A stretch of 60,075 nucleotides of DNA from a virus (taxonomy: Duplodnaviria > Caudoviricetes): positions 1 through 60,075 of the IMG/VR virus record IMGVR_UViG_3300046747_000237; one strand, given 5' to 3'. The notes beneath the pieces were generated by a model, which saw only the letters and a list, made by a program, of their open reading frames with translations, did not search any database and was not told the origin of the DNA. The first letter of the stretch is position 1; each line of letters opens with the position of its first letter. This document shows, in pieces, positions 26,865 to 41,458 of the stretch. Both the position numbers and the translations under genes were made by a program.

Positions 26865-27007
26865 CAGCCTAGCCACTCCTTCTTGGTCTTGATGATGCGG
26901 CGCAACTCCTTGCGCTCTTCCTTGCTCAGGTCGTAGTCGTCTGCGGTCTGAGTGAAGGGGGCGCCGCCGCAGATGATCTCGTAGGCCAGGGTGTAGAGCT
27001 TGCTCAT
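26864..27007 (-). CDS. Small hypothetical protein (47 aa)
   Basis: AGGAGAG RBS; stop overlaps the RHH ATG. Confidence 0.6.
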   Translation of the reverse strand: MSKLYTLAYEIICGGAPFTQTADDYDLSKEERKELRRIIKTKKEWLG

Positions 27008-27102
27008 CGGGTCTCTCCTCTGCGGCTCCGTGCCGCTCACAAGAAAGACTATGCACCCTGCCGATTGAATGCGCAATGCGTTTTCTTAGATGCTTGCCCG
27101 GT

Positions 27103-27132
27103 AGGCCGCGAAACGCCCCGGCAACGCATGCT
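27103..27132 (+). promoter_or_regulatory. Putative late promoter, leaderless
   Basis: AGGCCG-N18-CATGCT, 29 nt before ATG27138. Confidence 0.55.
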
Positions 27133-27137
27133 GGCTC

Positions 27138-27638
27138 ATGCTGAAGTCTGGCGTCGTCATCGCAGCGTCCACGGTGCTCGCCGGCCTCATCACCTGCCAC
27201 ACCGCCGACCCGCCGCCAGCCACCATCACCCGCAAGCCTCGCCCGACGCCCGCGGTGACGCTGGTGCTCGCGAGCGCGGACATGTCGCCGCACTGCCGCA
27301 TGGTGACGGCGCACGCGGTGCGGCACCTGGTCGAGCTTGGGGCGAAGATCGAGATGATCACGGTCGACGAGACGCATCCGTCATTCGGACTCGAACCGCA
27401 CGTCGGCCAGGTCGTGGTGCGCGCGGGGCTGCCACTCGGCGGGCTCTCTGAGTCTTTTGCGTGGAGGTCGCCAGCTGGCACCGTGCTGCGCGCTGAGATC
27501 GTGCTGGGCTACTGCTCGACGGCGCTCGTAGCTCACGACCTTTCACACGTCCTCGGCATGGAGATGTCGGTCAACTACGAACTGCTGCTGCACGCCGAGG
27601 GGCAGGACTGGGGGCTTGAGCCGATGGGGCGCCCGTGA
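27138..27638 (+). CDS. Exported zincin-like protein with degenerate motif
   Basis: Signal peptide; LVAHDLSHVLG instead of HExxH. Confidence 0.5.
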   Translation: MLKSGVVIAASTVLAGLITCHTADPPPATITRKPRPTPAVTLVLASADMSPHCRMVTAHAVRHLVELGAKIEMITVDETHPSFGLEPHVGQVVVRAGLPLGGLSESFAWRSPAGTVLRAEIVLGYCSTALVAHDLSHVLGMEMSVNYELLLHAEGQDWGLEPMGRP

Positions 27639-27964
27639 CCGACTACCCGAATCGCTGCAACGCCATCACCTCAATGGGCAGCAAGTGCTTCGTGCGCGTG
27701 AAAGAGCCCGGCCCATGCGCTGTCCACCGCCATCACGACGAGCGGGCACCGCAAGCCTTCAAGGCCGTGCGGCGCTGCGAGTACGTCGAGGCGAAGACGC
27801 GTGCGCGGTGCTTCGTGGCAGTCGGCGCCTACCAAGTGCTGTGTGACCAGCACGTGGCAGTGAGCGGCGTGCATGGGCTGCAGCGTGAGGCCAGGGCGCT
27901 CAGGAGGGCGCTCGACCAGCTGGACGAGGCGATCGCCCAGCTGGCGAGCCAGACGCCGCGTTAG
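27635..27964 (+). CDS. Cys/His-rich hypothetical protein
   Basis: Two RC...C...C..H units. Confidence 0.55.
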   Translation: MTDYPNRCNAITSMGSKCFVRVKEPGPCAVHRHHDERAPQAFKAVRRCEYVEAKTRARCFVAVGAYQVLCDQHVAVSGVHGLQREARALRRALDQLDEAIAQLASQTPR

Positions 27965-28341
27965 GCGTGCGCCCCGTTGCCGTTGGCGCGTGACGGCGTG
28001 GCGACCTCCAACATCTCCCGCGAGTAGCCCTGTGCGATGGCCGAAGTGAACCAGCCCGGCGTCGGACCCTTGCCCGACCAGGTCACGCTGGAGTCATCGG
28101 GGTTCACGTACTTGGCCGGCGCCACTCCACGCTGCGCGACTGGCTTGCGGGCAGCGCGTGGCGCATCGAGTAGCGACTGCTGGATGAACGTCGCGAACGA
28201 CACGCCGTCATCGTCGGCGAGCTCCTCGATCTCCTTTCGCAATGCGCTGATGCGCTCGGCCCTATGCTCGACCAATGCGTCTGCGAGCTGCTGCTGCATT
28301 GCGCGGATCTCGGCGGCTGATTTCCCCTTAGTGTCGATCAT
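27961..28341 (-). CDS. hns: H-NS family nucleoid-associated protein
   Basis: N-terminal coiled coil; APAKYVNPDD..VTWSGKGPTPGWF; AAGGAG RBS. Confidence 0.85.
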   Translation of the reverse strand: MIDTKGKSAAEIRAMQQQLADALVEHRAERISALRKEIEELADDDGVSFATFIQQSLLDAPRAARKPVAQRGVAPAKYVNPDDSSVTWSGKGPTPGWFTSAIAQGYSREMLEVATPSRANGNGAHA

Positions 28342-28654
28342 GATCCATTCTCCTTGCTCGTTGCTGTTTGGAAGCGAGCGCCCTCTCGACAGCTGGGCGC
28401 GTGATCTCAGGCTTGCTGCGGACCACTTCTAGAGCCGCCCTGCCCGCCTTTTTACGGCGTTTCTGCGGTAGGGCGGTCGGTCTGGGCGGCCTCCCTGGAA
28501 GTGGCAGGGCGAGGGCTTTCGAAGACCTCGCAGAAGCTCATCCAGAGCGCTCCCGAGGCGTCGCCGGTCGGCGCAAGCAGGGTCGCGTCGCCGCACTTGC
28601 CTGGTGCGCTGCACGCAAAGCGCATGCAGCGGACGCATAAGACCAATGCGTCGG

Positions 28655-29134
28655 TCATAGTGGCCGCTCCATCGGCCCGATCCACAAGTGGCCGAGTTCC
28701 GTCACGTCGAAGTCGTCCTCGATACATCGGTACCCGGTCGCGCATTCCACGACTTCGTAGACGTACGCCCTCGCGAATGGATGACGCTTGCACCAGTAGT
28801 AGCCCTCTGCTGATGGCGGCTGCGTTGTCCATGCCGGCTCAGGCTTCTCCATCGCTACGACGCCGTACGCGAACTCGCGCAGCGACTCGGGGCCGTTCAG
28901 GACCAGCAGGGCGGCCTCGAGCGCGTCGAGGGCGTTGGGGTGCCAGATAGACGCCAGCACCTCGAGCCGGCCGCTGCCCATCGTGGGGACCTGGAGCACA
29001 CGCGCCGATGTCACTTGGTCGTCGCTGTCCCAGTCGATGTCCACCTGGTGGATGTGCATGAGCCCGGACCCTGGACGCAGCCAAGCCTTCCGCGCCAGCG
29101 CCGTCAGCCTCTCCGTCCGCTTCTCGTCACTCAT
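28655..29134 (-). CDS. Hypothetical protein (159 aa)
   Basis: Part of the coupled leftward operon; WTTQPPSAEGYYW phage-type motif. Confidence 0.6.
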   Translation of the reverse strand: MSDEKRTERLTALARKAWLRPGSGLMHIHQVDIDWDSDDQVTSARVLQVPTMGSGRLEVLASIWHPNALDALEAALLVLNGPESLREFAYGVVAMEKPEPAWTTQPPSAEGYYWCKRHPFARAYVYEVVECATGYRCIEDDFDVTELGHLWIGPMERPL

Positions 29135-29325
29135 GACCGCTCCTGTTCCGCGATGATTCGCGCGACCTCGGCATCACAGCGCCTGCGGTTCTCGATGCCC
29201 TCCAGACGACGGCTCTCGCGAGTGCAGCAGTTGATGGTGAAGACGATCGCCCAGCCCGTGACGAGCGACCAGAACAGCCCGTAGGCGCCGACTGCGATGG
29301 TGTCGCTTTGCAGGAGGGCGATCAT
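29131..29325 (-). CDS. Small membrane protein
   Basis: One TM segment; ATGA coupling. Confidence 0.5.
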   Translation of the reverse strand: MIALLQSDTIAVGAYGLFWSLVTGWAIVFTINCCTRESRRLEGIENRRRCDAEVARIIAEQERS

Positions 29326-29555
29326 GTCTCCCTCCAGTCGTGGGCGCGCCCGTCGATCGTGGAGACCAGCTGCGAGACCCGGCTCGACAGCCCCGTAGGC
29401 GTGGATTGCCCGATGTGCTTGACCTGCATAGGCACGCTGACGAGCGCACTGCACACGTTGCACTGGGCCGATTCCACTGCCGTCCAGTGGTCGAGCAGCC
29501 GACGCTTGCCCGGCACCAGCGCGTCGGACTCGCAGACAGGGCAGTGAATGTTCAC
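29322..29555 (-). CDS. Zinc-ribbon protein
   Basis: CPVC...CNVC. Confidence 0.5.
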   Translation of the reverse strand: MNIHCPVCESDALVPGKRRLLDHWTAVESAQCNVCSALVSVPMQVKHIGQSTPTGLSSRVSQLVSTIDGRAHDWRET

Positions 29556-29776
29556 AGCTTCCTCCAGCCCATGACCCAGGCGCAGAGCCCGATGCCCAGC
29601 AGCAGACCGCCGATGGCGTCGGGGGTGCCCGTCGCGCCCGAGTAGTGCAGGATCCAAGCGGTGCAGCCGAGCAACATGCACCCGACTATGGTGTAGAGGA
29701 GTCTCCCCAGGAAGCCGACGACCCACTTGGCTCCACCGACTGCTGTTCCGACGATGCCTTGCTCTGCTTTGCCCAT
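29552..29776 (-). CDS. Small membrane protein (2 TM)
   Basis: AGGAGAG RBS; hydrophobic. Confidence 0.55.
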   Translation of the reverse strand: MGKAEQGIVGTAVGGAKWVVGFLGRLLYTIVGCMLLGCTAWILHYSGATGTPDAIGGLLLGIGLCAWVMGWRKL

Positions 29777-30111
29777 TTGAGTGCTCTCCTTGCTCGTTTT
29801 GCGTCGCGTTCTCTGCGGAGCTGTTCCTCGATCGCCCAGTGGGCGCGGAGGTAGCGGACGGTGTGCTCGTCCTCGATAGTCGCGGTCGGCCAGGCGATGG
29901 GCATGTCCGCATCGCAGGCGTTCCAGTCGCCGTCACTGCCGACGGCGTAGCGCTCCTCGCCCTGGTCGAGGTACTGCACCAGCCAGCGACCGTCGGCGGT
30001 GCGCCAAGCGCCGATGAACTCGCGTGGCGTGCCGAGCTGGTCGAGCAGCCAGATGACGAACCAGATCGAGAGGACGGCGCCTCCGACCAGGTGGGCGATG
30101 AGGGCGATCAT
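29686..30111 (-). CDS. Membrane-anchored hypothetical protein
   Basis: N-terminal TM; ORF track. Confidence 0.5.
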   Translation of the reverse strand: MIALIAHLVGGAVLSIWFVIWLLDQLGTPREFIGAWRTADGRWLVQYLDQGEERYAVGSDGDWNACDADMPIAWPTATIEDEHTVRYLRAHWAIEEQLRRERDAKRARRALKWAKQSKASSEQQSVEPSGSSASWGDSSTP

Positions 30112-30172
30112 CGGACGCCCCTGCCCATGCCGAGCTTGCGGAGCGACCAGCAGAGGGCTGTGAGGAGGACGC

Positions 30173-30490
30173 TCATTCGCCGCCTCGCAGCTTGGCGATG
30201 AGCGCCGCGAGGTCTTGCGGGTCGATGTGAGCCCGCTCGTTGGGCGCCGGGTCCCACACGCACTCTGCCTCGATCGCCGACAACACGCGCTCGCGCTCAG
30301 CGGCCTTGATCTGCTCTCCCTTGTCGAGCTCGCCGATGGCCAGCTGCGCGTCCCACGAGAGCCTCGAGACGCGCTGGAACTCGCCAGCCCAGTAGTCGGA
30401 GTACGGGCGGGTGAGCTCCTCGGTGAGGATGCGCTGCATCTCTGCGCGGTGCGTGTCGCGCAGGGCGACCAGTTCGTCTCGGCGGGTCAT
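30173..30490 (-). CDS. Hypothetical protein
   Basis: Coupled ORF. Confidence 0.6.
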   Translation of the reverse strand: MTRRDELVALRDTHRAEMQRILTEELTRPYSDYWAGEFQRVSRLSWDAQLAIGELDKGEQIKAAERERVLSAIEAECVWDPAPNERAHIDPQDLAALIAKLRGGE

Positions 30491-30834
30491 CGCGTCTTCT
30501 CCCGCGTCGTCACCTTCACGTACGCGTCGTAGAACTTGGCCAGGCTGAACTCGGCAGTGCTCGCCCGCATGTGGTCGAGCTTCGGCTGAACCGACGACCG
30601 CCAGCGGTGGAGGTGGCTCAGCAACGGCGCGACCTCGGCGAGCGCGAGCGCGCGCTCGGCCGCCAGCAGTTCGGGCACCCTGCCGCCCAGGTCGAGCAGC
30701 CGCGCCCGCTCGGCCTCCTCAGCCTCTCGGACTTGGTAGTTGAACTCCGAGCCGCAACGGCACTTCATCCAGCCATCGGGGAGCTTCTGTTCCGTGTGCT
30801 GTCCGCACGACGGGCACTGGAGGTAGTCGCTCAT
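30487..30834 (-). CDS. Zinc-finger hypothetical protein
   Basis: CPSC...CRC. Confidence 0.6.
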   Translation of the reverse strand: MSDYLQCPSCGQHTEQKLPDGWMKCRCGSEFNYQVREAEEAERARLLDLGGRVPELLAAERALALAEVAPLLSHLHRWRSSVQPKLDHMRASTAEFSLAKFYDAYVKVTTREKTR

Positions 30835-31124
30835 TCGCCCCTCCTCGCCGCTTCCTCAGCCTCTTTGTCTTCGTCCGCCTCGCGCAGCGCCGCGCGACGC
30901 TCACGACCGAGCCGCGACGCTACCGGCGACTCGTCCGTGGGGCGTGGGATGCCGTACCGCTCGTAGATGTCGCGTGCGTCCGCCTCGATGCTCTTGGCGG
31001 TGCGCTCGTCCGCGGCGTCGTCACTGTCGGCTGCGACGGGGGCTGCGGGCTTGTGTGGCTTGTCGGAGCTGCCGAGTAGGCAGCTGGCCATGGCGAGGAG
31101 CGCGAGGGCGATGAGGGCGGTCAT
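30831..31124 (-). CDS. Putative lipoprotein
   Basis: MTALIALALLAMASC signal/lipobox-like. Confidence 0.5.
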   Translation of the reverse strand: MTALIALALLAMASCLLGSSDKPHKPAAPVAADSDDAADERTAKSIEADARDIYERYGIPRPTDESPVASRLGRERRAALREADEDKEAEEAARRGE

Positions 31125-31486
31125 GGCTTCGCCTCCAGCCCTTCCGCAAGTCCCTTGGCCACGAGCGCGCCGCCCGCGGTGAGGCGGTATACGCGGCGGT
31201 GCATCGTCGGCCCCTGGTACTCACCGGGCCGAGCTGGCTGATACGCGAGACGCGACACGACCAGGCCCGCAGTCTCCAGCCCGTCGAGCAGCACGTAGAC
31301 GGTGCCGCGCCCGATCGAACCAGCGCAGCGGTCGTAGATGTCGGCGCCGAGCATGTCTCCGTGCTCTGACAGCAGGGAGAGGATCAGGCGCTGCTGGCGG
31401 TACGCGCGCGCCGCGAGGATGCGCCGGCCGAGCCAGCCGCCGAACAGCACGCCGGCCAGGGTGAGGGCGACGGATCCGGGGGTCAT
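31121..31486 (-). CDS. PadR-like wHTH regulator with N-terminal TM segment
   Basis: ILSLL...GADI...GTVYVLLDGLETAGLV...RRVYRLTAGG. Confidence 0.7.
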   Translation of the reverse strand: MTPGSVALTLAGVLFGGWLGRRILAARAYRQQRLILSLLSEHGDMLGADIYDRCAGSIGRGTVYVLLDGLETAGLVVSRLAYQPARPGEYQGPTMHRRVYRLTAGGALVAKGLAEGLEAKP

Positions 31487-32199
31487 GGGGACACCGTCGA
31501 GGTATCACGCCCACCAGGCGTCCCCACATTCGCCCAGGTCCGCCCCTTGATGGCGTCGCCGATTGCCCAGCGTGAAACGCCGAAGCGCGCGCCGACCTGC
31601 GCGTAGGACTGCCCCATCGCAACCAACTCGCGCACCTTGGGGATGTCGCTCTCGGCAAGCTTCGACGCGCCCCGAGCGCGCGGGAAGTCGTGCCGGCGCC
31701 TGTCGGCCGCGTTCTCACTCTTGGTGCCCCAGCGAAGGTTTACCGGCCATCGGTTGTCGCCGCGAACGCCGTTGTAGTGGCGGCACTCCATGCCAGCCGG
31801 GCAAGGCCCCTCGAACGCCTCGAGCACGAGCACGTGGACGAGCTTCTTCGCCTTGGCGCCACCCGAAAGCATCAGGTCGACGCGAGCGTAGCCAGCCTTC
31901 GAATCGGGCTTGAGCACCAGCCCGGTCTCGCCGTTGCGCACCGTCCCGTAGGCGCTGACCTCGTAGCGCGTGCCGGCAACAGGCTTCCAGCCCTCTGGAA
32001 TGGGCTGTGACAGACGCTGTGACAGAGCAGGCGCTAGATCGTGCTGGCTGGGGCCATCTGGCGCCGCGCAGTCTGCCGCGTTTACCGGGCCTTTTGCCGT
32101 AAAACTCGGCGCTCCCACCAGGAGTCGAACCTGGGACCTTTCGCTTAGGAAGCGACTCGCGTTTAAGTCTTTGGCGTCGTTTCGGGGTCTGTTTTCCAT
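31483..32199 (-). CDS. NUMOD4-HNH endonuclease with C-terminal HTH; 5' end spans attP
   Basis: EGWKPVAG.RYEVSAYG.VR; VHVLVLEAFEG...CRHYNGVRGDN..NLRWGT.SEN; GAGG RBS before ATG32199. Confidence 0.85.
   Translation of the reverse strand: MENRPRNDAKDLNASRFLSERSQVRLLVGAPSFTAKGPVNAADCAAPDGPSQHDLAPALSQRLSQPIPEGWKPVAGTRYEVSAYGTVRNGETGLVLKPDSKAGYARVDLMLSGGAKAKKLVHVLVLEAFEGPCPAGMECRHYNGVRGDNRWPVNLRWGTKSENAADRRRHDFPRARGASKLAESDIPKVRELVAMGQSYAQVGARFGVSRWAIGDAIKGRTWANVGTPGGRDTSTVSP
32004..32025. promoter_or_regulatory. Integrase arm-type site pair
   Basis: GCTGTGACAG at 32004 and 32016 (12-bp period). Confidence 0.7.
32108..32156 (-). other. attP core: 3' half of a tRNA-Arg(CCT)
   Basis: Minus strand TCGC-TTCCTAA-GCGA anticodon arm, CCAGG-TTCGACT-CCTGG T arm, TGGGAGC-G-CC acceptor; no D arm or 5' half; adjacent to the integrase. 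Confidence 0.85.
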
Positions 32200-32208
32200 G
32201 GCTGAACC

Positions 32209-33342
32209 TCAGTTGAGAGAGGAGGCTGAAGACTGGGCTGTAACAGCGGCTGTAACAGGGTCGATCCTGGTGGCCGCCGCGATCTTGGAAACGGCGCTGG
32301 CCATGCTCACGCGGTCGAGGTGGCCGTAGACGGCGCGCACCATCACCGTGCTCTCGTGGCCCATCAGCTCGGCGCAAACGCGCTCCGGGACGCCTGCCTG
32401 GCACAGCCACGAGCAGAAGGTCCGCCGCAGGTCGTTGGGTGTCACTCGGGCGATTCCAGCGCGCACGCAAGCCCTGGCAAGGTCTCGGACGCACGATCCG
32501 TCGGTCCACTCTGGGAAGGGCTTGGCGAGCACGCAGCGGCGGCGCAGCACCTCGGCAGCCTCTGGGTTGACGGGCACCAACCGGTCGGCGCCGTCGGTCT
32601 TGGTCCCGCGGACCCGAAGCTCGAGGCGCTTGGCGTCGAAGTCGTCTGGCTGCATGTCGGAGAGCTCGGACTTGCGTAGCCCGAGGTGGCAGTACGCGAT
32701 GACGTAGTCCCGTCGATCTTGCCGGTCGGCACGGCGGCGCAATGTCTTCGGAACGCGCTGGTTGCGTGTCGGCACGGGGTTGGGAGCAAGCGCGTCGAGT
32801 AGCGCCTCGTACTCCCCGCGGGTCATCCAGCGGTCTCGCGGCTTGTAGACGCCCGTCAGTTCGTCGGGAAAGTAATGCGTCGGGCTGCGGCTCGGGCGGT
32901 ACAGGCCCAGCTTTTCCGCGCGTCGCATCGCCTGGGTGAGGGTCTTGATCTCCTTCGCGACCGTATGCCGGTGGGCACCATCCTTGATGCGGGTCCGCAT
33001 GTAGCTGGTGGTGTCCGCGAGCGTGACCGATGCCAGCGGCGTGCTGCTGCCCAAGTGCTCGATCAGGTGCCGAGCGTGGTAGGTGCTCGCGCGGACCGTT
33101 GCCGGCGCGCGCTTCGCGTCCCGCTGGTACTTCAGGACGAGATCGAGGGCGGTGCTCACCGTGAGCCTCGCTTCCTCTTTCCAACCGGCGTCAACAACAA
33201 AGCGTCGCTCAATTTCTCGAGCGGCAAGCTTCGCGGCAGCCGGTTCGGTTTGCTTCGTCGACTCGTGCCAACGCTTCCCGTCGACGCCTCGTCCACAGCA
33301 CCAGAGGAACCGGGTTCCCTTCTTTTTGTAGATGCTCGGCAC
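32209..33342 (-). CDS. int: Tyrosine recombinase (integrase)
   Basis: GLRKSEL, TKT, NDLRR, LMGH, VYGH catalytic boxes; start GTG33342 (or 33372). Confidence 0.92.
   Translation of the reverse strand: MPSIYKKKGTRFLWCCGRGVDGKRWHESTKQTEPAAAKLAAREIERRFVVDAGWKEEARLTVSTALDLVLKYQRDAKRAPATVRASTYHARHLIEHLGSSTPLASVTLADTTSYMRTRIKDGAHRHTVAKEIKTLTQAMRRAEKLGLYRPSRSPTHYFPDELTGVYKPRDRWMTRGEYEALLDALAPNPVPTRNQRVPKTLRRRADRQDRRDYVIAYCHLGLRKSELSDMQPDDFDAKRLELRVRGTKTDGADRLVPVNPEAAEVLRRRCVLAKPFPEWTDGSCVRDLARACVRAGIARVTPNDLRRTFCSWLCQAGVPERVCAELMGHESTVMVRAVYGHLDRVSMASAVSKIAAATRIDPVTAAVTAQSSASSLN
32237..32258. promoter_or_regulatory. Integrase arm-type site pair
   Basis: GCTGTAACAG at 32237 and 32249 (12-bp period). 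Confidence 0.7.
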
Positions 33343-33551
33343 TGGTACTCGTTGCCTCCGCTTTTGAACCACCGGTCGATCACGTCGGTGCTGATCTTGA
33401 GGAGCTTCCCGACTCGCACATGCGGAAGGGAAAGCATGATCTCGCGCGCCTTGTGGTCTTTGACGCCAACCAGTTCGCAGACCTCTTTGACGCTGAGTAG
33501 CAGCCGCGAGCGAACCTCACGCGTGCGCATATTCTCGGCCGCATTACTCAT
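33156..33551 (-). CDS. Excisionase-like HTH protein
   Basis: LLSVKEVCELVGV...PHVRVGKLLKI...IDRW; upstream of int. Confidence 0.7.
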   Translation of the reverse strand: MSNAAENMRTREVRSRLLLSVKEVCELVGVKDHKAREIMLSLPHVRVGKLLKISTDVIDRWFKSGGNEYQCRASTKRREPGSSGAVDEASTGSVGTSRRSKPNRLPRSLPLEKLSDALLLTPVGKRKRGSR

Positions 33552-33747
33552 GGCTAGGCCCCCTCAAGAACGCCTCGATCGTCTCCACCCGAAACCGGTG
33601 CCCCGCCAGCGACGCCCCGCTCTTCCCACGATGGTCCGGCACGATGCGCCCGCGCCTGACCAGCGCACGCACGCCGCTCACGGTGAGCTTGAGCCGCTTG
33701 GCGACCTCGCTGGTGGTGAGCCACTCGGTGGTGATGGCGTCAGACAT
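33544..33747 (-). CDS. Second excisionase/MerR-like HTH protein
   Basis: WLTTSEVAKRLKL....VRALVRRGRI...HRF...IEAF. Confidence 0.75.
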   Translation of the reverse strand: MSDAITTEWLTTSEVAKRLKLTVSGVRALVRRGRIVPDHRGKSGASLAGHRFRVETIEAFLRGPSHE

Positions 33748-34213
33748 CGCCCGCCACACTCGCCGCAAGCTCTGCCAGCCCCTTAGTGTCGAACCGTACG
33801 TAGCTGATCGTCTTGTACGATTCGCCGTAGGACGACGAAGCCCGCTCACCTCTCTTGTCGCGCTCGTACTTTACCAGCGACGGGCTGACGTCGTTCGAGA
33901 GCGAACAGTCGAAGCCGAGCCACCAAAGGTGCTCAGGCTCGCCCGGCTCCGGCACGTGGCAGAGTGGCGGCGAGCACTCATTGGCGTACGTGAGCCCGCC
34001 GTTCACGGCGATGTCGTCGCACATGGAGTGGACGTCGCCCTCACTCTTGCCGTGCCACGGGTGGCCAGGAGGCACGCCCACGTAGCCGCAGAGCGCACCC
34101 AGGCCATTACGGTGGATCAGGCACACGAAGCCCGCGTGTCGAAACTCGACGTGATCGGGCTCGTCCATCCACTCGCCGGGGCCGAACTTTGCAAGCTTCT
34201 CTTCGTTGGTCAT
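33740..34213 (-). CDS. Conserved-type phage hypothetical protein
   Basis: CGYVGVPPGHPW...VNGGLTY...WWLGFDC motif. Confidence 0.7.
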   Translation of the reverse strand: MTNEEKLAKFGPGEWMDEPDHVEFRHAGFVCLIHRNGLGALCGYVGVPPGHPWHGKSEGDVHSMCDDIAVNGGLTYANECSPPLCHVPEPGEPEHLWWLGFDCSLSNDVSPSLVKYERDKRGERASSSYGESYKTISYVRFDTKGLAELAASVAGDV

Positions 34214-34361
34214 GGTCGAGCTCCTCTCATCTGCACGAGCTGTCGCAGCGTCGGCAGGTTCTTTGCGGCCTGGTAACACGGGGTGCACAGGAGCTTTCCA
34301 GCGAGCTGCCACAGCGTGTGCGAGCCTTTGCCGCCTGCGTCGCAGGGGGTGAGTTGGTCGG

Positions 34362-34649
34362 TCATGGCTCCACCCGGTTGATGAGCGCGTTCAGGCGGGC
34401 GACCTCGGAGAGAAGTCGACGCACGTCTGCAGGCGCTTGCGCCAGGATCTCCGCGACGCATGCGCTCGTCAGCATCATCTCGCTGCACCGCACGTGATCA
34501 GTCGTCAGCCAGACGGCGTGGCCCTCCTCCGGGTGCTCGCCAAAATCGCCAAGCGGCCAGTCCTGCATGGCATCGTCGAGGCCCTTGGCTAGGCGCAGCG
34601 GCGGCATGTCGCGCCAGCGCTCGATGATGGCTTCGATGGTTCTCGGCAT
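34362..34649 (-). CDS. Hypothetical protein
   Basis: Coupled ORF. Confidence 0.55.
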   Translation of the reverse strand: MPRTIEAIIERWRDMPPLRLAKGLDDAMQDWPLGDFGEHPEEGHAVWLTTDHVRCSEMMLTSACVAEILAQAPADVRRLLSEVARLNALINRVEP

Positions 34650-34837
34650 CACTTCGCCATCCTCTCCAACACGCCCCGCGTCTCCTCGATCTGCGTCCAC
34701 AGTCCCCGCGCGTCTCCGAGCAGGTTCTCGCTGGCCCTGGCGACGCTCATCGCCAGCCGCACCAGCGACTCAGCTTCGAGGCGCTCGACGTCGAGGGAGG
34801 CGGTGCTGTGCAGGGCGTCGGTGATGGGGCGGGTCAT
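34649..34837 (-). CDS. Hypothetical protein
   Basis: Coupled ORF (MTRPITDAL...). Confidence 0.5.
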   Translation of the reverse strand: MTRPITDALHSTASLDVERLEAESLVRLAMSVARASENLLGDARGLWTQIEETRGVLERMAK

Positions 34838-35274
34838 GGCGCCACCGGACGAGCGCGATTGCCTGCCTGGCGCTCGGTGATGCCAGCGAACGTCTGCTCG
34901 ACGCGGGTGCGGAGCAGTGCGACGTCGTCGAGGCTGCGCAGGGTCGCCGTCCCGAACATCGTCGTGACCATGCGTGGCAGTACGATGAGCACGGTGATCG
35001 TTTCTTCTGTCGGGAGGTCGTCGGTGGGAGCCAGGCAGTTCGCCTCGCGGTAGGCGCGCGGGTCCGTCCAAAGCTTCTCGGCGTCGTCCAGGTTCATGTA
35101 GCTTCCGTGGACGCCGCTCGTGCTGAGGAATACCCAGTTGATGTCGTCCGGTTCGAGGTCGCGCAGAATCTCCATCGCGTCTCCCATGATCTCGTTGGTC
35201 GTGTAGTGGCTCCCTGCCTCTACAGGTCGGCCATGACGGTCGACGTTTCGAAGCGGCCATGCGCCCTCGGTCAC
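34834..35274 (-). CDS. Hypothetical protein
   Basis: GTG start coupled to the upstream stop; NWVFLSTSGVHG. Confidence 0.6.
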   Translation of the reverse strand: MTEGAWPLRNVDRHGRPVEAGSHYTTNEIMGDAMEILRDLEPDDINWVFLSTSGVHGSYMNLDDAEKLWTDPRAYREANCLAPTDDLPTEETITVLIVLPRMVTTMFGTATLRSLDDVALLRTRVEQTFAGITERQAGNRARPVAP

Positions 35275-35573
35275 GTCGCCACCTTCGCGAGCTCTTCCCG
35301 CAGCCGCGTGTTCTCTTCCATGACGCGGTCGACGTACTCCCAGAGGCTCTGCACACCCGCCACCAGCTCGGCGCCAGTCACGCCAGCGTCGTGCATGTCG
35401 GCGGGGCGCTCGGAGTCGCCCTCCGGCCACAGCGCCTCGGCGATCTGCATCATCTCGGCAGAGATCTCGATGAGCGAGTTTTCCTTGGACCGGCATTCCG
35501 CTAAGAGCTCGTCCATGGTGAGGTTGGGCAGCACGCCGTGGGTGCGGATGTAGCTGACGGTGGCGGGGGTCAT
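35271..35573 (-). CDS. Hypothetical protein
   Basis: AAGGAG RBS. Confidence 0.6.
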   Translation of the reverse strand: MTPATVSYIRTHGVLPNLTMDELLAECRSKENSLIEISAEMMQIAEALWPEGDSERPADMHDAGVTGAELVAGVQSLWEYVDRVMEENTRLREELAKVAT

Positions 35574-35660
35574 GGTGGTGTCTCCTTCGGTGGTCGCTGG
35601 TCGCGCTTCCGATACAGCGCAGCAACGTGTGCTGCTGCGCTGAGGCAGGGCGCGATCGGG

Positions 35661-36182
35661 TTAAAATGGGATGCTGTCCTCGTCGTCTGGCGGGCCGTCG
35701 TACGGCATGTCGGCGAAACCACCGGTCGGCTTGGCTGGCTCGGCGGCGCGAGCGGCTACCGGTGCCACGCCGTAGTTGCGCGCACTGTCGCGCGTGAGTC
35801 GCGCCATGCTCTCCGAGAACTTCTGCAGCTGCTCTGCGTTCATCGGGTTCTTCAGCATCAGGCGCGGCGGCCGGTTGACGAACCGCACCTCTTCGTAGGT
35901 CTTCTCGCCGTCCTTCCGAGCCTCGAGCACAACCTCGACCTCAGAGGTGCCCATGCCGGACATGTCGCCGAACGTCTCGCCGACCCATCCGCAGTGACGC
36001 AGCGACCTGAGCGTATGCTCCACCGAGTTGCTCGACAGGAAGCCAGTCCACTGTCGCGACTGGCCGGCCTTATCGCCACTGCGGAGCTCGAACAGCACCT
36101 TGACGACTTCGTAACCACCAACGACGTCGAAGTCCCACGACGTCGCCACTGCCTTGCACGTTGTTTGGTTCTCTTTGAGCAT
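35661..36182 (-). CDS. Single-stranded DNA-binding protein (putative)
   Basis: Acidic tail ending DDEDSIPF; follows the exonuclease/annealase pair. Confidence 0.7.
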   Translation of the reverse strand: MLKENQTTCKAVATSWDFDVVGGYEVVKVLFELRSGDKAGQSRQWTGFLSSNSVEHTLRSLRHCGWVGETFGDMSGMGTSEVEVVLEARKDGEKTYEEVRFVNRPPRLMLKNPMNAEQLQKFSESMARLTRDSARNYGVAPVAARAAEPAKPTGGFADMPYDGPPDDEDSIPF

Positions 36183-36194
36183 ATCCAGCCTCTC

Positions 36195-37058
36195 TTACGC
36201 TGCTTCGTCTTCTGCTTCGTCGTGGTGCGACCGGTCCTCATCGCCCCACCGCGGGGGCGTTGGCAATGCGATGAGCTCGCGCTCGACGCGTGGCCACAGG
36301 CCGGATGCGTAGTGCCCGCGCAGTCTGATCAACTGCCGCTCAGTCCAGCGCCAGCCCTGGTCGAGCCACTCGGGCGTGAGCTCGACGACCTGGCAGCGGA
36401 AGGGGATGGTCTTCTCGCAGACGAGCAGGAAGTGCCTCGAGCCCAGCACGTCCCACGCCTGGCGGCAGATCGAGCCCTGAGCGTCGTAGCGGTATTTGAT
36501 CACGCCTCGCCCGCTCGTGATGTCAGAGAGAGACTGCGCGCTCTTCAGGTCGAGCGAGAACGGCGCATAGCCGCTCGCAAGGCACCCTTCCGCGCTCAGG
36601 TAGTCGGGCCGGCTCTGAATGCCCGGCGTGCCAGGGAACGGGCCGCGGAGGGTCACCTGCTTCACGCACGCGTTCACCATCTCCACGGCGGTCTCGTTCT
36701 CTTCCAGGGCCGCACGCATGGCCATGCAGCTGTCGAGCTCTTCCTCGGTGACGAACGAGCGACCCGCGGCCAGGTGCGCATCGCGCCACTTCTTGTCCTC
36801 GTTCGACCGGAACTCGCGATCCTTGATGACGAGCTTCCCGTCCGCATTGAAGCCGCGGCCCTGCACGATGTCCTCGAACACCTGCCCGAAGATCAGGGCC
36901 TCCCGGTTCTTCGTCTCTGGCGTCGAGCGCAGCACGTGCTTCGTGTAGAAGCCGTACGCGCCGAGCTGCTCGAACGTCTTGAGCTTGTTCGCCCCGAGCC
37001 TCGGGGAGGCGTGGTAGTCCTCGAGCGACACGTCGAGGCTGAAATTGCGCTCGATCAC
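36195..37058 (-). CDS. RecE/ExoVIII-like PD-(D/E)XK exonuclease
   Basis: EDYH, FG..F, SRPD, DLKS, Y.Y..Q motifs. Confidence 0.8.
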   Translation of the reverse strand: MIERNFSLDVSLEDYHASPRLGANKLKTFEQLGAYGFYTKHVLRSTPETKNREALIFGQVFEDIVQGRGFNADGKLVIKDREFRSNEDKKWRDAHLAAGRSFVTEEELDSCMAMRAALEENETAVEMVNACVKQVTLRGPFPGTPGIQSRPDYLSAEGCLASGYAPFSLDLKSAQSLSDITSGRGVIKYRYDAQGSICRQAWDVLGSRHFLLVCEKTIPFRCQVVELTPEWLDQGWRWTERQLIRLRGHYASGLWPRVERELIALPTPPRWGDEDRSHHDEAEDEAA

Positions 37059-37885
37059 TGCGCTGCCTCAGCGGGCTGCATGGCCAGGTTGATGGCCTCG
37101 CGCGGCGAGACCTCGTGCGCAGCGCATGCCTCTTGGAACGCCAGCCACGCCTTGCTCTTTCGCACCGGGCCGTGGAGCCGCACGATCTCGCGCGCCGTCT
37201 CGGCGAAGTGCTCGATCTTCGAGCAGCCCGGCAGGTCGTCGTTTATCAGCTTGGCAAGGCTCTCGTCCTTCGACGGCCCAGCGGCCAGCGCTGGCGCAGC
37301 GGAGGACGGCTCCATCGCGTTCAGCGGCGCGTCGATGAAGCGCGGCGGTTCGTAGCTCTGCTGCTCATCGTCGAGCTCATCGGGCAGGTAGATGCCGGCG
37401 AGGATGTCGGGGCAGTACGCCTTGCCCGCTGCGCTGATGGCGCGCGCTCGCAGCATCGCCTGTGGGTACATCTTCCAGTTGCCGCCATCCTTGAGCAGAC
37501 CAGCGCGCTCGGCGAACGCGAGCGTGAACGTCGACACGTACGGCTCTTGGCCGTCGCGCGACAGTTCGAGCGACGCCGTCTGGCCGTCGCTGCCGTCGTT
37601 GAGCCAGCGGTACTTGAGGCCGGCGCGGATCATCAGTCCGAGCTGCAGCGCCGCGTCGAGGGTGACGTTCCCCTTCACAATTTTTATGCTGCGGATGCTT
37701 GCCATCGGACCAATGCCGAGTTCTCGGCCAGCGAGCACGACCGCGACGATTTCGCCTTCACCGCGCAGGTGAGTCGGAAGGAACCCGCCTGCTTTGACGA
37801 GCGCCGATGCCAACTGGAAGATCGCGGGCAGCTCGCCAGCGATGTCTGTGCCGTTGCGTAGTGCCAGTGAAGAACCGTTGCTCAT
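37055..37885 (-). CDS. RecT/Redbeta-family ssDNA annealing protein
   Basis: GRELGIGPM...AERAGL...WKMYPQAMLRARA...PDIL.GIY..DE. Confidence 0.85.
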   Translation of the reverse strand: MSNGSSLALRNGTDIAGELPAIFQLASALVKAGGFLPTHLRGEGEIVAVVLAGRELGIGPMASIRSIKIVKGNVTLDAALQLGLMIRAGLKYRWLNDGSDGQTASLELSRDGQEPYVSTFTLAFAERAGLLKDGGNWKMYPQAMLRARAISAAGKAYCPDILAGIYLPDELDDEQQSYEPPRFIDAPLNAMEPSSAAPALAAGPSKDESLAKLINDDLPGCSKIEHFAETAREIVRLHGPVRKSKAWLAFQEACAAHEVSPREAINLAMQPAEAAQ

Positions 37886-38070
37886 GACTTCCTCCCGCGA
37901 ATGTCCGGCCAGAGTGCAGAGATTTTGAGATCGCCGAAGTGGGCAATCAGGAGACGCAGCTCTTTCAAGTTGAGCACTTCAGACCCCCACGTTGAAAACA
38001 CACGCCCAGAACAGCGCGGACCAGCACACCGCGACGACTGCTGCGACCATCCAGAACGCGACGATGCGCA

Positions 38071-38286
38071 TCAGAAGCCTCCGTAGGAGCAGACGCCGAG
38101 GCACCGCGAGCACCCGCCGTTGCAGTCGCAGTTGCGGTCGCCAGAGACGGCGTCCAACTCGTCGGCACGGAGCTCAGCCGCACACCACTGGCAGGCGATG
38201 CTGTGGGGGAACGCCTCCACCGGCTCGAAGCTGTCCACCCTGCACATGCAGTCGCAGAGCTGGCAGCGCATGAGGGGCGTGCCCAT
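38071..38286 (-). CDS. Cys-rich small protein
   Basis: CxxC clusters; coupled. Confidence 0.5.
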   Translation of the reverse strand: MGTPLMRCQLCDCMCRVDSFEPVEAFPHSIACQWCAAELRADELDAVSGDRNCDCNGGCSRCLGVCSYGGF

Positions 38287-38480
38287 CAGACTGCCCCGCC
38301 GCTCATCCAGACAGCCTTGCTGGTGTGGTGGTCGTAGTAGCGCCGCACGCGACCGCACAACCTGCACGTGCACTCGTCATTGCCATCGATGAACGCCTGG
38401 CCCTGATGCGCGTCGGAGAGCTCGAGCTCGGCGAGCGAAGGCGTGGGCTCGCGACGCGGCATTGCCGGCGGGGCGCTCAC
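38286..38480 (-). CDS. Small protein with CxCxxC
   Basis: Coupled ORF. Confidence 0.5.
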   Translation of the reverse strand: MSAPPAMPRREPTPSLAELELSDAHQGQAFIDGNDECTCRLCGRVRRYYDHHTSKAVWMSGGAV

Positions 38481-38815
38481 AGCGCACCTGCCATCGCCGG
38501 ATCCGCCTGCTGCGCCCAGTAAGCTTCGTCGAGCGCATCAGCTTCGTTGACGATCTCCTGAAGCTCGGTGACCTCGGCGGAGCAGTCGCCGTGTGCCGGG
38601 CACTGGTTGCGCACGCACCGGCGCAGAGCGTCAGCCAGCTTCTCCAGCGTCGGCGCCGACAGCCGGCGAGCCAGCTTCGAGACGCCGCCCGACTCGAGCG
38701 CGATGGCCGAGAGGGCTGAGAGCTCCGAGGAGTGGCAGTAGCAAGCGTCGTTCGCGCATGCATCGCTGTGGAGCGGTGTGACGCGGGCTGAGGCGGGCTG
38801 AGCGGTGATCCTCAT
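38477..38815 (-). CDS. First gene of the leftward early operon (Cys-containing hypothetical)
   Basis: ATG38815 lies 7 nt after a putative -10. Confidence 0.55.
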   Translation of the reverse strand: MRITAQPASARVTPLHSDACANDACYCHSSELSALSAIALESGGVSKLARRLSAPTLEKLADALRRCVRNQCPAHGDCSAEVTELQEIVNEADALDEAYWAQQADPAMAGAL

Positions 38816-38852
38816 AACCACAGTTATGCAACCGCGGTGATGCAACCGTCAA
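38813..38852 (-). promoter_or_regulatory. PL-like promoter with operators
   Basis: Minus strand TTGACG-N18-CATAAC; palindrome CATAAC-CACA-GTTATG (38813-38828) and TGCAAC-CGCG-GTGATG (38827-38842). Confidence 0.7.
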
Positions 38853-38909
38853 CTAACAATCGTTCGCGGGGTGTCGTTTTCTGAGATCAGCCATCGGCCG
38901 GGCGCTCGC

Positions 38910-39335
38910 TTACTGCATCGTCACCGTCACGTCATAGGTCGCGGTGCAGGGTTGGTTGGTCTCGTAGACGAAGGTCACGACCCCGCGCAGTTCGTCGGCT
39001 TCTACGAAGTGCAGCACGCCGATCATGGTGGCCGCCTGGCCGTCTGGATTGACGCAGCGGAAGTTGTCATACGTGAGCGCGCAGAGGTCGGCGGACCTGA
39101 CTACGCTGCCTGTGCACACCACGCCCGTCTCGCGCGGCGGCCCGCCGTACACCACGGCCTGCTCGAAGTCGCCGTCGTTGCACGTGCCGTTGGGACGCTC
39201 GTGCATCTGGTGCAGCCACACGCCTGTCATCGGCTCGCAAGGCCCCTCGAACGGCTCGTCGCCAGCTCCGCAGGCTGCTGAGGCTGCTGCAATCGCGAGC
39301 AATAGTGGCGCGGCGAGGGGACGAGTGTTTGGCAT
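38910..39335 (-). CDS. Cys-rich lipoprotein (possible superinfection-exclusion protein)
   Basis: Signal with SAAC lipobox-like motif; downstream of cI in the immunity region. Confidence 0.6.
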   Translation of the reverse strand: MPNTRPLAAPLLLAIAAASAACGAGDEPFEGPCEPMTGVWLHQMHERPNGTCNDGDFEQAVVYGGPPRETGVVCTGSVVRSADLCALTYDNFRCVNPDGQAATMIGVLHFVEADELRGVVTFVYETNQPCTATYDVTVTMQ

Positions 39336-39477
39336 TGGGCAGATCTACCTATTCCTGTGAGGGGACTCAACGGGTGTGCCTTTTGCTGTCGCGCAAAAGT
39401 GACACGGTGGGGTGAAGCTGCGCGTTTGGCGCGCTACAACGGACCCTGCTTCAGGGTAGATTGTTTCGGCTTCGACA

Positions 39478-39512
39478 CGGAGGCGACAGTGCAGGGGGCG
39501 CTGTCGCCTCTG
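39478..39512. terminator. 15-bp hairpin downstream of cI
   Basis: CGGAGGCGACAGTGC-AGGGG-GCGCTGTCGCCTCTG. Confidence 0.45.
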
Positions 39513-39570
39513 CCGTCGGATCTCAGCCCTCTGTCGAGCGAGCGCGCCCCACGCTCAGGAGCCTTGGTAT

Positions 39571-39750
39571 ATGAAGCTCGCTGCCGGCCCGCTGTACTTT
39601 GCCGAAGCCGTTCCCGACCGAGTCATGCACTGGACGGAGAACGACCTGGCGCTCATGCGAGACGGCATCAGGCAGATGGAAAACGCGCTCGAGCGGGCGC
39701 GTGCCGACTACCGCCACGCCGAGGCCCGCCTGCACGCGCAAGCTTGCTAG
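39571..39750 (+). CDS. Small protein (59 aa) convergent with cI
   Basis: AGGAG upstream; MKLAAGPLYF...; stop codons overlap at CTAG. Confidence 0.45.
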   Translation: MKLAAGPLYFAEAVPDRVMHWTENDLALMRDGIRQMENALERARADYRHAEARLHAQAC

Positions 39751-40253
39751 CGCAACTTGCGCGGTGGCTGCGGCTTCACCGGCTCGGCCCCTGCGGATGC
39801 CTGCGACGGAGAGTCGATCTGCAGGCCGCGGAACAGGTGGAGCTGGTTGAGCCACCAGCCATCATTCGCGTTGTCTATCCCGCGGGGGAAGCGGTAGCTG
39901 GCAAGGTAGTTGCGCTCGTCGAGCGTGATGCCTTGAGGCTTGGTAGCGCGCTCGAGAAAGCCCCGTAACGAAGCGTAGATGACCGCCCGCGGCTCGCATG
40001 GGTCGGCCGCCTCCTCGGGCGCATGGTCGAGGTCGTCCTCGTCAGTAAGCAGGTCGTCGAGTGGGCGCTTGAGCGCCTTGGCGAGCTCCCTGCGCGTTTC
40101 GAGGGTCGGCTTCGACGCGCCCGTGCGCCACTTCTGCATGGCGGGCCCGCTCTTCCCGATCATCTGCCCAAGGCGGTTCATCGAGACGCCCGCCTCCGCA
40201 GCCATGCGTTCCAGTCGTTCGTAGAACGCCGTGCGTTCGATCGGTCGCGCCAT
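39747..40253 (-). CDS. CI-like repressor (XRE HTH)
   Basis: RLERM....GVSMNRLGQMIG.S..AMQKWRTG.SKP; divergent from cro; no S24 peptidase motif seen. Confidence 0.85.
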   Translation of the reverse strand: MARPIERTAFYERLERMAAEAGVSMNRLGQMIGKSGPAMQKWRTGASKPTLETRRELAKALKRPLDDLLTDEDDLDHAPEEAADPCEPRAVIYASLRGFLERATKPQGITLDERNYLASYRFPRGIDNANDGWWLNQLHLFRGLQIDSPSQASAGAEPVKPQPPRKLR

Positions 40254-40282
40254 GAGGAGGGTTTGTAAACCCTGGTCCCTCC

Positions 40283-40364
40283 AAGACGCAATTGCGGGGG
40301 TTTCACAACCCAAGGAGAGAAACTGTTGCGTCTTCATAACCATGGTTATATAACCTGACCTATG
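40283..40364. promoter_or_regulatory. cI/cro divergent promoter-operator region
   Basis: Plus strand TTGCGT(40326)-N17-TATAAC(40349); operator CATAAC-CATG-GTTATA (40335-40350); inverted TTGCGTCTT at 40283-40291. Confidence 0.75.
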
Positions 40365-40565
40365 ACCTTGGCTGAATGGTTGGCGGCCGGCAAGCGCGGC
40401 TCAGTCGCCCGACTCTCTCGAACATCCGGCGTCTCGATGCTGACTATCCGTCGCGTCAGAGACGGCCTTCGGCTGCGAAACGTGTGCGTCGCAAACGCGT
40501 TGAGTGCGGCTACCGCCGGCGCGGTTTCGCCGGAATCGATGCTCGACATCGCGAGGGCCGCGTGA
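40362..40565 (+). CDS. Cro-like protein
   Basis: 67 aa; MTLAEWL...ARLSR.SGVS..TI...A..LS.AT.GAV. Confidence 0.8.
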   Translation: MTLAEWLAAGKRGSVARLSRTSGVSMLTIRRVRDGLRLRNVCVANALSAATAGAVSPESMLDIARAA

Positions 40566-41149
40566 TCCCGCAGGCGAAGATCGACAAGTTCTGGTCGCGC
40601 GTCGACAAGAGCGGCGAGTGCTGGGTCTGGACTCGATACGTCAACATCTTCGGCTACGGCCAGGTCTCGGGCTTCGGCAAGGGCCTCGGGACAGCGCACC
40701 GCGTCTCGTACTTCCTGAAGCACGGCCCGATTCCAACTGGCGCCCACATTTGCCATTCGTGCAACGTCGCACGCTGCTGCAACGACGCGCACCTGTACGC
40801 CGGAAATCCGCTGACAAACAGCTGGGACCGCGTGCTCGCGGGACGCTCGAACTACAGCGCTGGCGCGAAGGAGCGCGACCGCTCGAAGCTGCCGCGTAGC
40901 GACGCTGCGCGCGCGTCCGCCGAGACGTGCCGGGCGCTCCGCATGCGCTGCGGGATGACGCAGCGCGAGGTTGCAGCCGCGCTCGGCTGCTCGACCGCCA
41001 ACGTCTCCAACAACGAGCAGGCGTGGCGCGTCGCGCCGGCCGACGAGCTGGCGAAGCTCGAGCGGCTGGCCGACGCCGTGCGCCGGGGCGTCGTTCGCCC
41101 TCGCTACGCGCTGCCAGCTGGTGAGCATCCGCATTCCTTAGACACGTAG
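40562..41149 (+). CDS. HNH endonuclease fused to a C-terminal XRE HTH
   Basis: FWSRVDK..ECWVW...AHRVSY...ICHSCN...C.N..HL; LR...GMTQREVAAALG.S...VS..E. Confidence 0.85.
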   Translation: MIPQAKIDKFWSRVDKSGECWVWTRYVNIFGYGQVSGFGKGLGTAHRVSYFLKHGPIPTGAHICHSCNVARCCNDAHLYAGNPLTNSWDRVLAGRSNYSAGAKERDRSKLPRSDAARASAETCRALRMRCGMTQREVAAALGCSTANVSNNEQAWRVAPADELAKLERLADAVRRGVVRPRYALPAGEHPHSLDT

Positions 41150-41227
41150 TCGCACGTCCCCCCACCCGCAAGGACTGTTGCGCTGACTCGTCAGTAGGCC
41201 CGCATCTGCACCTGAACAGAGGCTCCC

Positions 41228-41458
41228 GTGATCGAAGCTCTCGCTGTCTTTTCCGCCCTCATCGCCTTCATCAGCATCGCCCGCATGATGGCGCGCTGCG
41301 GTAGCGACGCCTTCGACGACGACTACGAGCCGCCTGCGCCCATCGCCGCAGTGCCGCGCGCGCTCCTCGCGAAGCCCGCCAACGACGTGACGCCGTTCCC
41401 CGTCGACGCAGAGACGCAGCCCGCAGCACGCCGCAAGCGCCAGCAGGAGGCCGCGTGA
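41228..41458 (+). CDS. Small membrane protein
   Basis: GAGG RBS; N-terminal TM. Confidence 0.55.
   Translation: MIEALAVFSALIAFISIARMMARCGSDAFDDDYEPPAPIAAVPRALLAKPANDVTPFPVDAETQPAARRKRQQEAA

Follow-up and report, generated by a model that had tools for sequence, protein, structure and literature searches.

Does the attachment site (attP) of a temperate phage lie inside the translated part of a nuclease gene, such that integration would split that gene, or does it lie in the gene's leader? The question is raised by the IMG/VR virus record IMGVR_UViG_3300046747_000237, whose 60,075 nucleotides (nt) we analyzed over their full length and refer to as the window. Here, an attP stands between a tyrosine integrase gene (int) and the domains of a NUMOD4/HNH_3 nuclease, and the longest open reading frame (ORF) of the nuclease runs straight across it. 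The initial annotation placed attP inside the nuclease gene and read it as an integration-dependent switch. We read the locus mainly as a well-resolved anticodon-centered tRNA-Arg attP in an uncultured high-GC soil phage. The question is thereby confined to one start codon of an otherwise ordinary phage attP, with the splitting of the nuclease gene by integration as a possible outcome. The reading that we favor, to which we give about an even chance, is that the nuclease gene proper begins at the P' arm from a near-cognate start codon, and that attP belongs to its leader.

Judged by its sequence, the locus is the attP of the adjacent tyrosine integrase, a site of the lambda type spanning ~255 bp (32004-32258) between int and the HNH gene (Table 1). 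Its core is the 3' half of a tRNA-Arg(CCT) gene, with the anticodon CCT at 32149-32147 on the minus strand, in a loop that reads TTCCTAA. The Rfam tRNA model gave a partial match (32118-32177, minus strand; 18.5 bits against a gathering score of 29; E 0.53), and ARAGORN detected no whole tRNA in the window, both as expected of half a tRNA gene. Stronger support for the tRNA half comes from comparing the core stretches behind four related int genes with that of the window: all 25 cells of the T stem were paired, and four of its five pairs showed compensatory changes. Its covariation was 0.64 versus 0.24 in shuffles (none of 500 reached the observed value), and fell to at most 0.23 when the pairing partners were slid. 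As the T stem stays paired through compensatory changes, each phage would track a different host tRNA. The arms are equally distinct: the motif GCTGTRACAG occurs four times in the 60,075 bases (32004, 32016, 32237, and 32249; 0.29 expected), all four flank the core, and none of 100 shuffles reached this count. The tRNA half and the paired arm sites had both been proposed in the initial annotation, and both are borne out, the former by the sequence itself, the partial Rfam match, and the T-stem covariation.

To place the crossover, we examined the loci of related integrases, fetched with a 27-sequence int alignment (43 from metagenomes and 28 from IMG/VR), and searched 77 loci for the core motif, with the window itself as L001. 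The motif GCTTCCTAAGC, within the anticodon stem-loop and just downstream of int, was found in the window, L007, L008, L029, L052, and L062. Since the window and the five related loci have no other tRNA piece in common than this stem-loop, we infer that strand exchange most likely takes place there. The relatives carry arm repeats of their own, arranged as 12-nt-spaced pairs on both sides of the core. In the window, L062, and L029, the P' arm has its far end ~146-152 nt from the core. Closest in layout to the window is L029 (343-393), with a sense 3' half and two arm pairs. The 3' half is antisense in L007 (1354-1399) and L052 (6087-6139), and L009 (2736-2771) holds an antisense half of a tRNA-Arg(TCT). 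Overall, the core is oriented in the sense of int in the window, L029, and L062, and antisense to it in L007, L008, L009, and L052. In phages with the inverted core, the restored tRNA would lie beside int rather than at the far prophage end.

Two of these loci have a different arrangement. In L062 (196-710) and L008 (1040-1390), the attP core is the ~15-nt anticodon stem-loop of tRNA-Arg(CCT) alone, and both also carry a complete, different tRNA-Arg(CCT) gene beside int (218-293 in L062 and 1314-1387 in L008). Integration would here be expected to break the host tRNA gene, with the phage copy replacing it. The integrase family is therefore a useful comparative set, as it brings together tRNA-restoring and tRNA-disrupting attPs, both core orientations, and recurrent HNH genes at the P' arm.

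The core of the window would correspond to the 3' half of a host tRNA-Arg(CCT) gene, and integration would thus restore the tRNA. Searching with the core for the host attB, as the initial annotation had suggested, gave no exact match: pieces of 42 nt and 28 nt from the tRNA half were absent from 185,579 species genomes, and the 28-nt piece was also absent from IMG/VR. A circular Logan contig from the probable source run (X1) was opened at the 5' edge of the core, with its ends overlapping over 32128-32157. A break at this point would fit a branch in the assembly graph, with a second sequence (the 5' half of the host tRNA gene, as attB or attL) entering the core; no contig with such a second sequence was seen among the matches listed.

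The integrase beside this site has 78 homologs in metagenomes (top identity 69%), while a single-protein search of IMG/VR recovered no close relative. Residues R233, K258, R316, H339, and Y349 are invariant in the 27-sequence alignment; we take them to belong to the catalytic R-K-(H)-R-H-Y set, in which the second-position His is N313 here. Alignment with the 26 homologs suggests that the true start of int is a GTG ~12 codons into its longest ORF. The metagenome gene call for int (P0016, 316 aa) cuts off 71 conserved residues and is left without the conserved N-terminal domain. At the other end of the gene, the P arm sites make up the last ~16 codons of int (32209-32258). Several homologs have similar T/A-rich tails at their C-termini, and others end just before this point. 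The int tail thus has the look of arm DNA that is translated, and repeats on a small scale the effect by which an ORF comes to run over an attachment site.

The nuclease ORF is open on the minus strand from an ATG at 32199-32197 (ATG32199) to a stop at 31483, and encodes 238 aa with no internal stop. Two of its domains are recognizable (PF07463, 26.7 bits, cut-off 23.4; PF13392, 51.4 bits, E 8e-14), and the structure of I-HmuI (1u3e) is matched with an E value of 1.1e-5 (query residues 71-182 on chain residues 3-115, with residue 3 aligned to W71). H141, N154, and N163, which form the H-N-N motif, are invariant in the alignment of HNH homologs. By these features, the gene is a free-standing, homing-endonuclease-like NUMOD4/HNH_3 gene, with cleavage and homing as its predicted activities. 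A search of IMG/VR with the HNH protein returned five distant loci.

How far upstream the translated gene extends is less evident. ATG32199 lies 9 nt after the int stop and 7 nt after a GAGG that overlaps this stop, and int and the HNH ORF are in one frame with a single TGA between them. The only in-frame ATG, GTG, or TTG codons between the int stop and the NUMOD4 domain are ATG32199 and a GTG within the core (GTG32118). On these points the initial annotation was accurate: the frame is open from ATG32199, the ribosome-binding GAGG overlaps the int stop, and no in-frame ATG or GTG (nor TTG) stands between the core and the domain. Such an arrangement could act as a switch. Translation of the nuclease would start at ATG32199, in coupling with that of int, and attP would be read as an unconstrained leader of 68 residues, such that only the circular or excised genome would yield the full-length protein. 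After integration in the anticodon loop, the int end of the prophage would keep ATG32199 with 14-17 codons, and the nuclease domain would be found at the tRNA end. These two codons being the sole canonical starts before the domain argues for the switch, as do the GAGG and the neighboring int stop. A precedent is also available: in mycobacteriophage BPs, attP lies inside a translated ORF (PMC3694055). Weighing this against the evidence given below, we hold the switch to be a tentative explanation.

The nuclease might instead be translated from GTG32118, the only other canonical in-frame start. This codon is located 3' of the anticodon loop, and the start would thus travel with the nuclease upon integration, with no switch at the level of the ORF. 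We regard this as very improbable: GTG32118 has no good Shine-Dalgarno-like motif, it falls in the T-arm/acceptor region and is paired in the predicted RNA fold, and its use would still add 43 unconserved residues, encoded largely by codons with a low GC content at third positions (GC3, 0.54 for codons 32-68).

We next compared the ORF with its homologs. The number of residues preceding the column of W71 was at most 13 in 11 of 13 aligned homologs, and 17 and 33 in the other two, against 70 in the window ORF. Likewise, all five viral homolog loci have an ATG, GTG, or TTG within 13 codons of the W71 position. No homolog covered codons 1-68, either in the homolog alignments or in the I-HmuI match, and homology starts at residue 69. 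The composition of the ORF changes at the same point: codons 1-68 have a GC3 of 0.59 and a codon log-odds score of -0.28, versus 0.85 and +0.29 for codons 69-238. Among 800 windows of 68 codons from 19 confident training genes, only 0.5% (GC3) and 1.4% (log-odds) were as low. The low GC3 extends over codons 32-68, from the core to the domain, a part without tRNA constraint. The mean AlphaFold pLDDT (predicted local distance difference test) per block was 45-60 for residues 1-60 and at least 94 from residue 71 (at least 87 for most later blocks), which is weak evidence because low pLDDT is expected where the alignment is empty. Taken together, the 68 upstream codons lack the appearance of a sequence that evolved to be translated.

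An open frame of this length is not surprising in this genome, whose GC content is 0.62-0.72 all along the window. Three of the six frames are open over 31996-32199 (shuffle P 0.11, or 0.23 with the core held fixed), and the open frame is therefore not above chance; 41% of all 204-nt windows in the genome are open. These results speak against the switch, for which the 68 codons would have to be translated although they have neither a coding signature nor a homolog.

Based on these observations, we favor the reading in which the evolved nuclease gene would begin at about codon 67-69 of the long ORF, at the P' arm, and the 68 upstream codons would be attP DNA that is stop-free and in frame by chance. 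Initiation would occur at the near-cognate ATT of codon 67 (ATT32001) or at an arm-site CTG, and expression would be weak. The attP would then lie in the leader of the nuclease gene, outside its functional coding part. ATT32001 occupies the position of the ATG in homologs and in the HNH gene of the related locus L045.

The same coincidence is open to another explanation, namely that the native ATG was lost to ATT and that the gene is decaying, or that an N-terminally truncated product is made from the GTG at codon 87. Free-standing homing endonuclease genes are known to decay, ATT stands exactly at the position of the homologs' ATG, and the database protein for the window (P0001, 152 aa) was given a start at residue 87 by a metagenome gene caller. 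We did not use this start as evidence, since the same caller trims the 71 conserved residues from int (P0016), and its starts weigh little. Decay or truncation seems unlikely to us: codons 69-86, which hold half of NUMOD4, have a GC3 of ~0.89 (hand count), the 170 codons of the domain part contain no stop, the catalytic H/N/N columns are intact, and the ATT is shared by three diverged sequences in which change within the domain is mostly at third positions.

These sequences came from near relatives of the window, which we recovered as fragments from Logan contigs of four runs (X1 and X2 from soil, X3 and X4 from freshwater) and compared over 30800-33400. The first, X3, is a 151-nt contig from a freshwater metagenome. 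It is identical to the window over 32109-32156, differs over 32157-32202 by 11 listed substitutions and a -1/+1 indel pair, and turns unlike the window exactly past the tRNA 3' end; its int-side flank is ~72% identical. At this break the contig may pass, through the attR of a related prophage, into 19 nt of host flank, or the spacer may have diverged. In X3, 10 of the first 14 residues are changed, and nine of the ten listed substitutions in codons 1-15 fall at codon position 1 or 2. The leader peptide sequence itself is therefore, by this pattern, not under selection, a further point against the switch. The second, X4, covers 31876-32061. Its ATT67 is unchanged, and the domain differs by two third-position changes and one conservative T-to-A replacement. 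ATT32001 is seen in all three related sequences, which are diverged.

Several observations weigh against the near-cognate start that we favor. From codon 28 to codon 87 there is no ATG, GTG, or TTG, such that this reading needs a rare start codon, and neither ATT32001 nor the arm CTGs are preceded by a Shine-Dalgarno-like motif, while ATG32199 has its GAGG at a good distance and the int stop just upstream. Such a motif is, however, present in only 22 of 42 first-start gene models of the phage, which tempers its absence at the ATT and the CTGs and lets the GAGG of ATG32199 count a little. The CTG of codon 63 is CCG in X4, which weakens the CTG option. X3 keeps ATG32199 and an open frame over codons 1-31, despite ~28% divergence in codons 1-14, and the 36 unlike letters of X4 past 32061 contain no in-frame stop (by eye, 30 letters shown). 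Retention of the ATG and of the openness perhaps amounts to a rough likelihood ratio of 3-5 for some constraint. In addition, a non-coding composition is compatible with a translated linker whose sequence is dictated by attP function, and does not exclude one. The switch also draws support from ATT, not ATG, standing at 32001 in the three related sequences, even though the domain is intact (H141/N154/N163 invariant; GC3 0.85). The two relatives contain no stop in the codons that they cover (1-31 and 37-108); codons 32-36 are covered by no relative, and codons 37-46 as loose letters only, which limits what the retained frame can contribute to the switch.

The wider set of integrase loci provides a further comparison. 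Three other clade members have an HNH_3 gene immediately past the P' arm: L044 (386-901), L045 (456-1058), and L062 (704-1204). The ATG of this gene lies inside the P' arm in L044, 3 nt past it in L045, and ~110 nt past it in L062. Hence, of the check proposed in the initial annotation, whether the frame across attP is preserved in relatives, one half turned out in favor of its claim, as X3 and X4 have no stop in the covered codons, and the other half did not, as these three HNH genes have their own ATG at or past the P' arm. In L062, moreover, the HNH gene is in another frame than the one that runs through the core. In L044, a further in-frame ATG lies upstream, after AAAGGA, and the frame is open through the tRNA core, although a canonical ATG is already available where homologs begin. 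Such extensions can thus come about with no need for them, and that of L044 appears, from its sequence, to be a clear case of a fortuitous one.

We also considered an ORF across attP as a general trait of the clade and rejected it as not significant: a forward frame was open over the whole attP interval in two of six loci (0.02-0.18 expected per locus), a count that likewise gives no support to the switch. The core-crossing ORF ends in an ATGA overlap with the HNH start in L062 and L045 and is in frame with it in L044. In L062 this ORF has TTG starts only, and an ATGA overlap is also present at a gene of L007 that is not an HNH gene. Considering all of this, the claim that attP lies inside the HNH gene is upheld as regards the open frame, the ATG, and the GAGG; translation across attP is the less probable course, given the composition, the homologs, X3, and the HNH genes of L062, L044, and L045.

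The HNH_3 genes behind attP in L044, L045, and L062 are non-orthologous, and comprise HNH_3 combined with a helix-turn-helix (HTH) domain and HNH_3 combined with AP2. Similarly, in the database protein P0061 an integrase catalytic domain is fused to HNH_3-AP2. We rejected paralogy between the window HNH gene and that of L062, as only the HNH motif aligns (E 0.001), and, on the same grounds, between the two HNH_3 genes of the window itself (E 0.099). These arrangements suggest that HNH cassettes have landed repeatedly at the int-attP junction, where the conserved tRNA core or the int 3' end may serve as target; the recurrence fits mobility without demonstrating it. A wider version of the switch, no more than tentative, would have HNH_3 genes repeatedly recruited to the P' arm boundary (the window, L044, L045, L062, and the P0061 fusion) because Int binding or attP topology would gate their expression.

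Whichever start is used, integration would have a consequence for the genes beyond the nuclease. The window is an entire virus record with direct terminal repeats and a completeness rating of 100%, and the Logan contig from the probable source run (59978 bases) has a 30-base end overlap, indicating a circular genome. According to a crude gene map, structural genes occupy the plus strand up to ~27960, and a leftward, co-directional block on the minus strand extends from 40343 down to 27961, with int, attP, and the HNH gene in its middle. Upon integration, the part from the HNH gene to the H-NS-domain gene would be detached from the upstream leftward genes and set behind the host tRNA-Arg, in the same orientation. 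One prophage end would carry int, ATG32199, and a few codons, and the other the restored tRNA-Arg, the HNH gene, and the PadR-like gene, onward to H-NS; we infer this arrangement from the orientation of the core. The initial annotation had proposed that this operon is cut off from a promoter PL and driven by the host tRNA promoter. The topology of the block fits the relocation, while PL and the drive from the tRNA promoter are conjectural: a scan of 27000-41500 for the sigma-70 consensus found no site, a scan that is weak in 66% GC DNA. No terminator-like site was found between the tRNA half and the HNH domain, and a search for RNA runs containing the stretch listed none.

Table 1. Features of the attP locus and its surroundings in the window (positions in the window; strand, where given)
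Feature	Position	Strand	Remarks
attP core, tRNA-Arg(CCT) 3' half	32108-32157	-	Anticodon stem-loop, variable loop, T arm, and acceptor 3' strand; no CCA
Anticodon stem-loop segment, candidate strand-exchange site	32142-32156	-	Shared by the window attP and five related loci
P arm, two GCTGTAACAG sites, 12 nt apart	32237-32258	.	Within the last int codons
P' arm, two GCTGTGACAG sites, 12 nt apart	32004-32025	.	Each opens with an in-frame minus-strand CTG (codons 59 and 63)
Tyrosine integrase gene (int), longest ORF 387 aa	32209-33372	-	PF00589, E 1.1e-16
int stop TGA (32211-32209), GAGG (32210-32207), ATG (32199-32197)	32197-32211	-	Candidate upstream start of the long HNH ORF, in the int frame
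In-frame GTG, codon 28	32116-32118	-	In the acceptor strand of the core
ATT, codon 67, candidate near-cognate start	31999-32001	-	2 nt past the P' arm, 4 codons before W71
NUMOD4 (residues 69-109), HNH_3 (residues 119-164), and C-terminal helical HTH-like part	31483-31995	-	Part of the ORF with homologs and coding signature
PadR-like gene	31121-31486	-	Behind the HNH gene
Co-directional genes 3' of HNH, which would travel with it on integration	27961-31486	-	PadR-like gene, several small ORFs, and H-NS-domain gene
H-NS-domain gene, 126 aa	27961-28341	-	Closes the leftward block; C-terminal DNA-binding domain of H-NS, E 1.5e-12
Two HTH_17 excisionase-type ORFs	33156-33849	-	Just upstream of int; PF12728, E 5.7e-8 and 2.7e-4
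Cro/CI-type HTH gene	39747-40343	-	At the start of the leftward block
Second HNH_3 protein, with C-terminal HTH_31/HTH_3 domain	40376-41149	+	Opens the rightward block; divergent from the Cro/CI-type HTH gene

Some of the surrounding genes deserve comment. The second of the two excisionase-type ORFs (33156-33551, minus strand) overlaps the 5' end of the int ORF by ~180-215 nt and has a low GC3 of 0.69, and it is uncertain where this ORF truly ends or where int truly starts. Farther upstream in the leftward block, the gene at 37055-37885 (minus strand) has a weak RecT-family match (E 4e-4, under the Pfam cut-off) and may be a recombination gene. The second HNH_3 gene is related to those that follow attP in L044 and L045 (tblastn E ~1e-13). 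No annotated phage relative was found: blastn against 50,697 phage records gave two matches, both to Gordonia phage Gsput1, covering 3% of the query at an HNH gene. The H-NS C-terminal domain may point to a proteobacterial host, given where this domain is usual.

The locus illustrates that, where DNA is GC-rich, an attachment site can be engulfed by a long ORF. Were translation nonetheless to cross attP, it would constitute a second kind of integration-dependent switch after that of the BPs repressor, acting on a nuclease and by removal of its start codon. The nuclease, potentially damaging to the host, would then not be made in the lysogen, and its expression would come on together with that of int upon excision or infection, a scenario that we consider doubtful; if true, it would explain how a temperate phage can safely carry a homing nuclease.

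Finally, we compared the locus with known systems. In phage lambda, attP lies downstream of int in a leftward transcription unit, and int is subject to retroregulation by sib. The likeness is that int acquires a new 3' neighborhood upon integration and is parted from the distal genes. The difference is that no sib-like RNase III structure was seen in the window, where none was specifically sought and where the RNA fold of 31980-32215 on the minus strand was unremarkable (z -0.65). I-HmuI (PDB 1U3E), which is intron-encoded, resembles the nuclease in carrying NUMOD4 and then HNH_3 in the same order. In contrast, the window gene is free-standing, abuts attP, and is without a canonical start at the family's usual N-terminus.

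Attachment sites in tRNA genes are reportedly classified by Williams (2002). The Islander database lists 2083 islands with anticodon-centered sites and 3760 with a 3' tDNA fragment, and the anticodon-centered class is called the commonest of tRNA attachment sites, according to PMC4383910. The window shares with the anticodon-centered sites of heterobivalent (lambda-type) integrases a tyrosine integrase beside a core that reaches from the anticodon stem-loop to the 3' end, the expected restoration of the tRNA, and arm repeats on both sides. It differs in that core orientation relative to int varies within its clade, and in that the site is known here from sequence alone. Two relatives recall another type, the tRNA-dependent lysogeny of actinobacteriophages (Guerrero-Bustamante and Hatfull 2024), whose architecture is as given in PMC10865867. 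The likeness is that of L062 and L008, uncultured environmental phages with a stem-loop core and a complete phage tRNA-Arg(CCT) gene. Unlike them, the window keeps the whole 3' half and has no tRNA gene, which would place it in the conventional tRNA-restoring type.

A full-text literature search for attP inside a nuclease gene, in a library that is incomplete, yielded no such paper among the titles listed. The nearest parallel is mycobacteriophage BPs, where attP lies inside the repressor ORF and integration removes a C-terminal degradation tag, activating the repressor (PMC3694055, PMC4557955). If the nuclease were translated across attP, the two would be alike in having attP within a translated ORF by int, with one product encoded by the viral genome and another by the prophage. 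For BPs, experiments have established the ORF across attP, whereas in the window the crossed segment is without a coding signature and its translation is putative. The outcome would also be reversed. Integration in the window would remove the start and N-terminus of the nuclease and silence it, making the locus a mirror case of the BPs repressor as described there.

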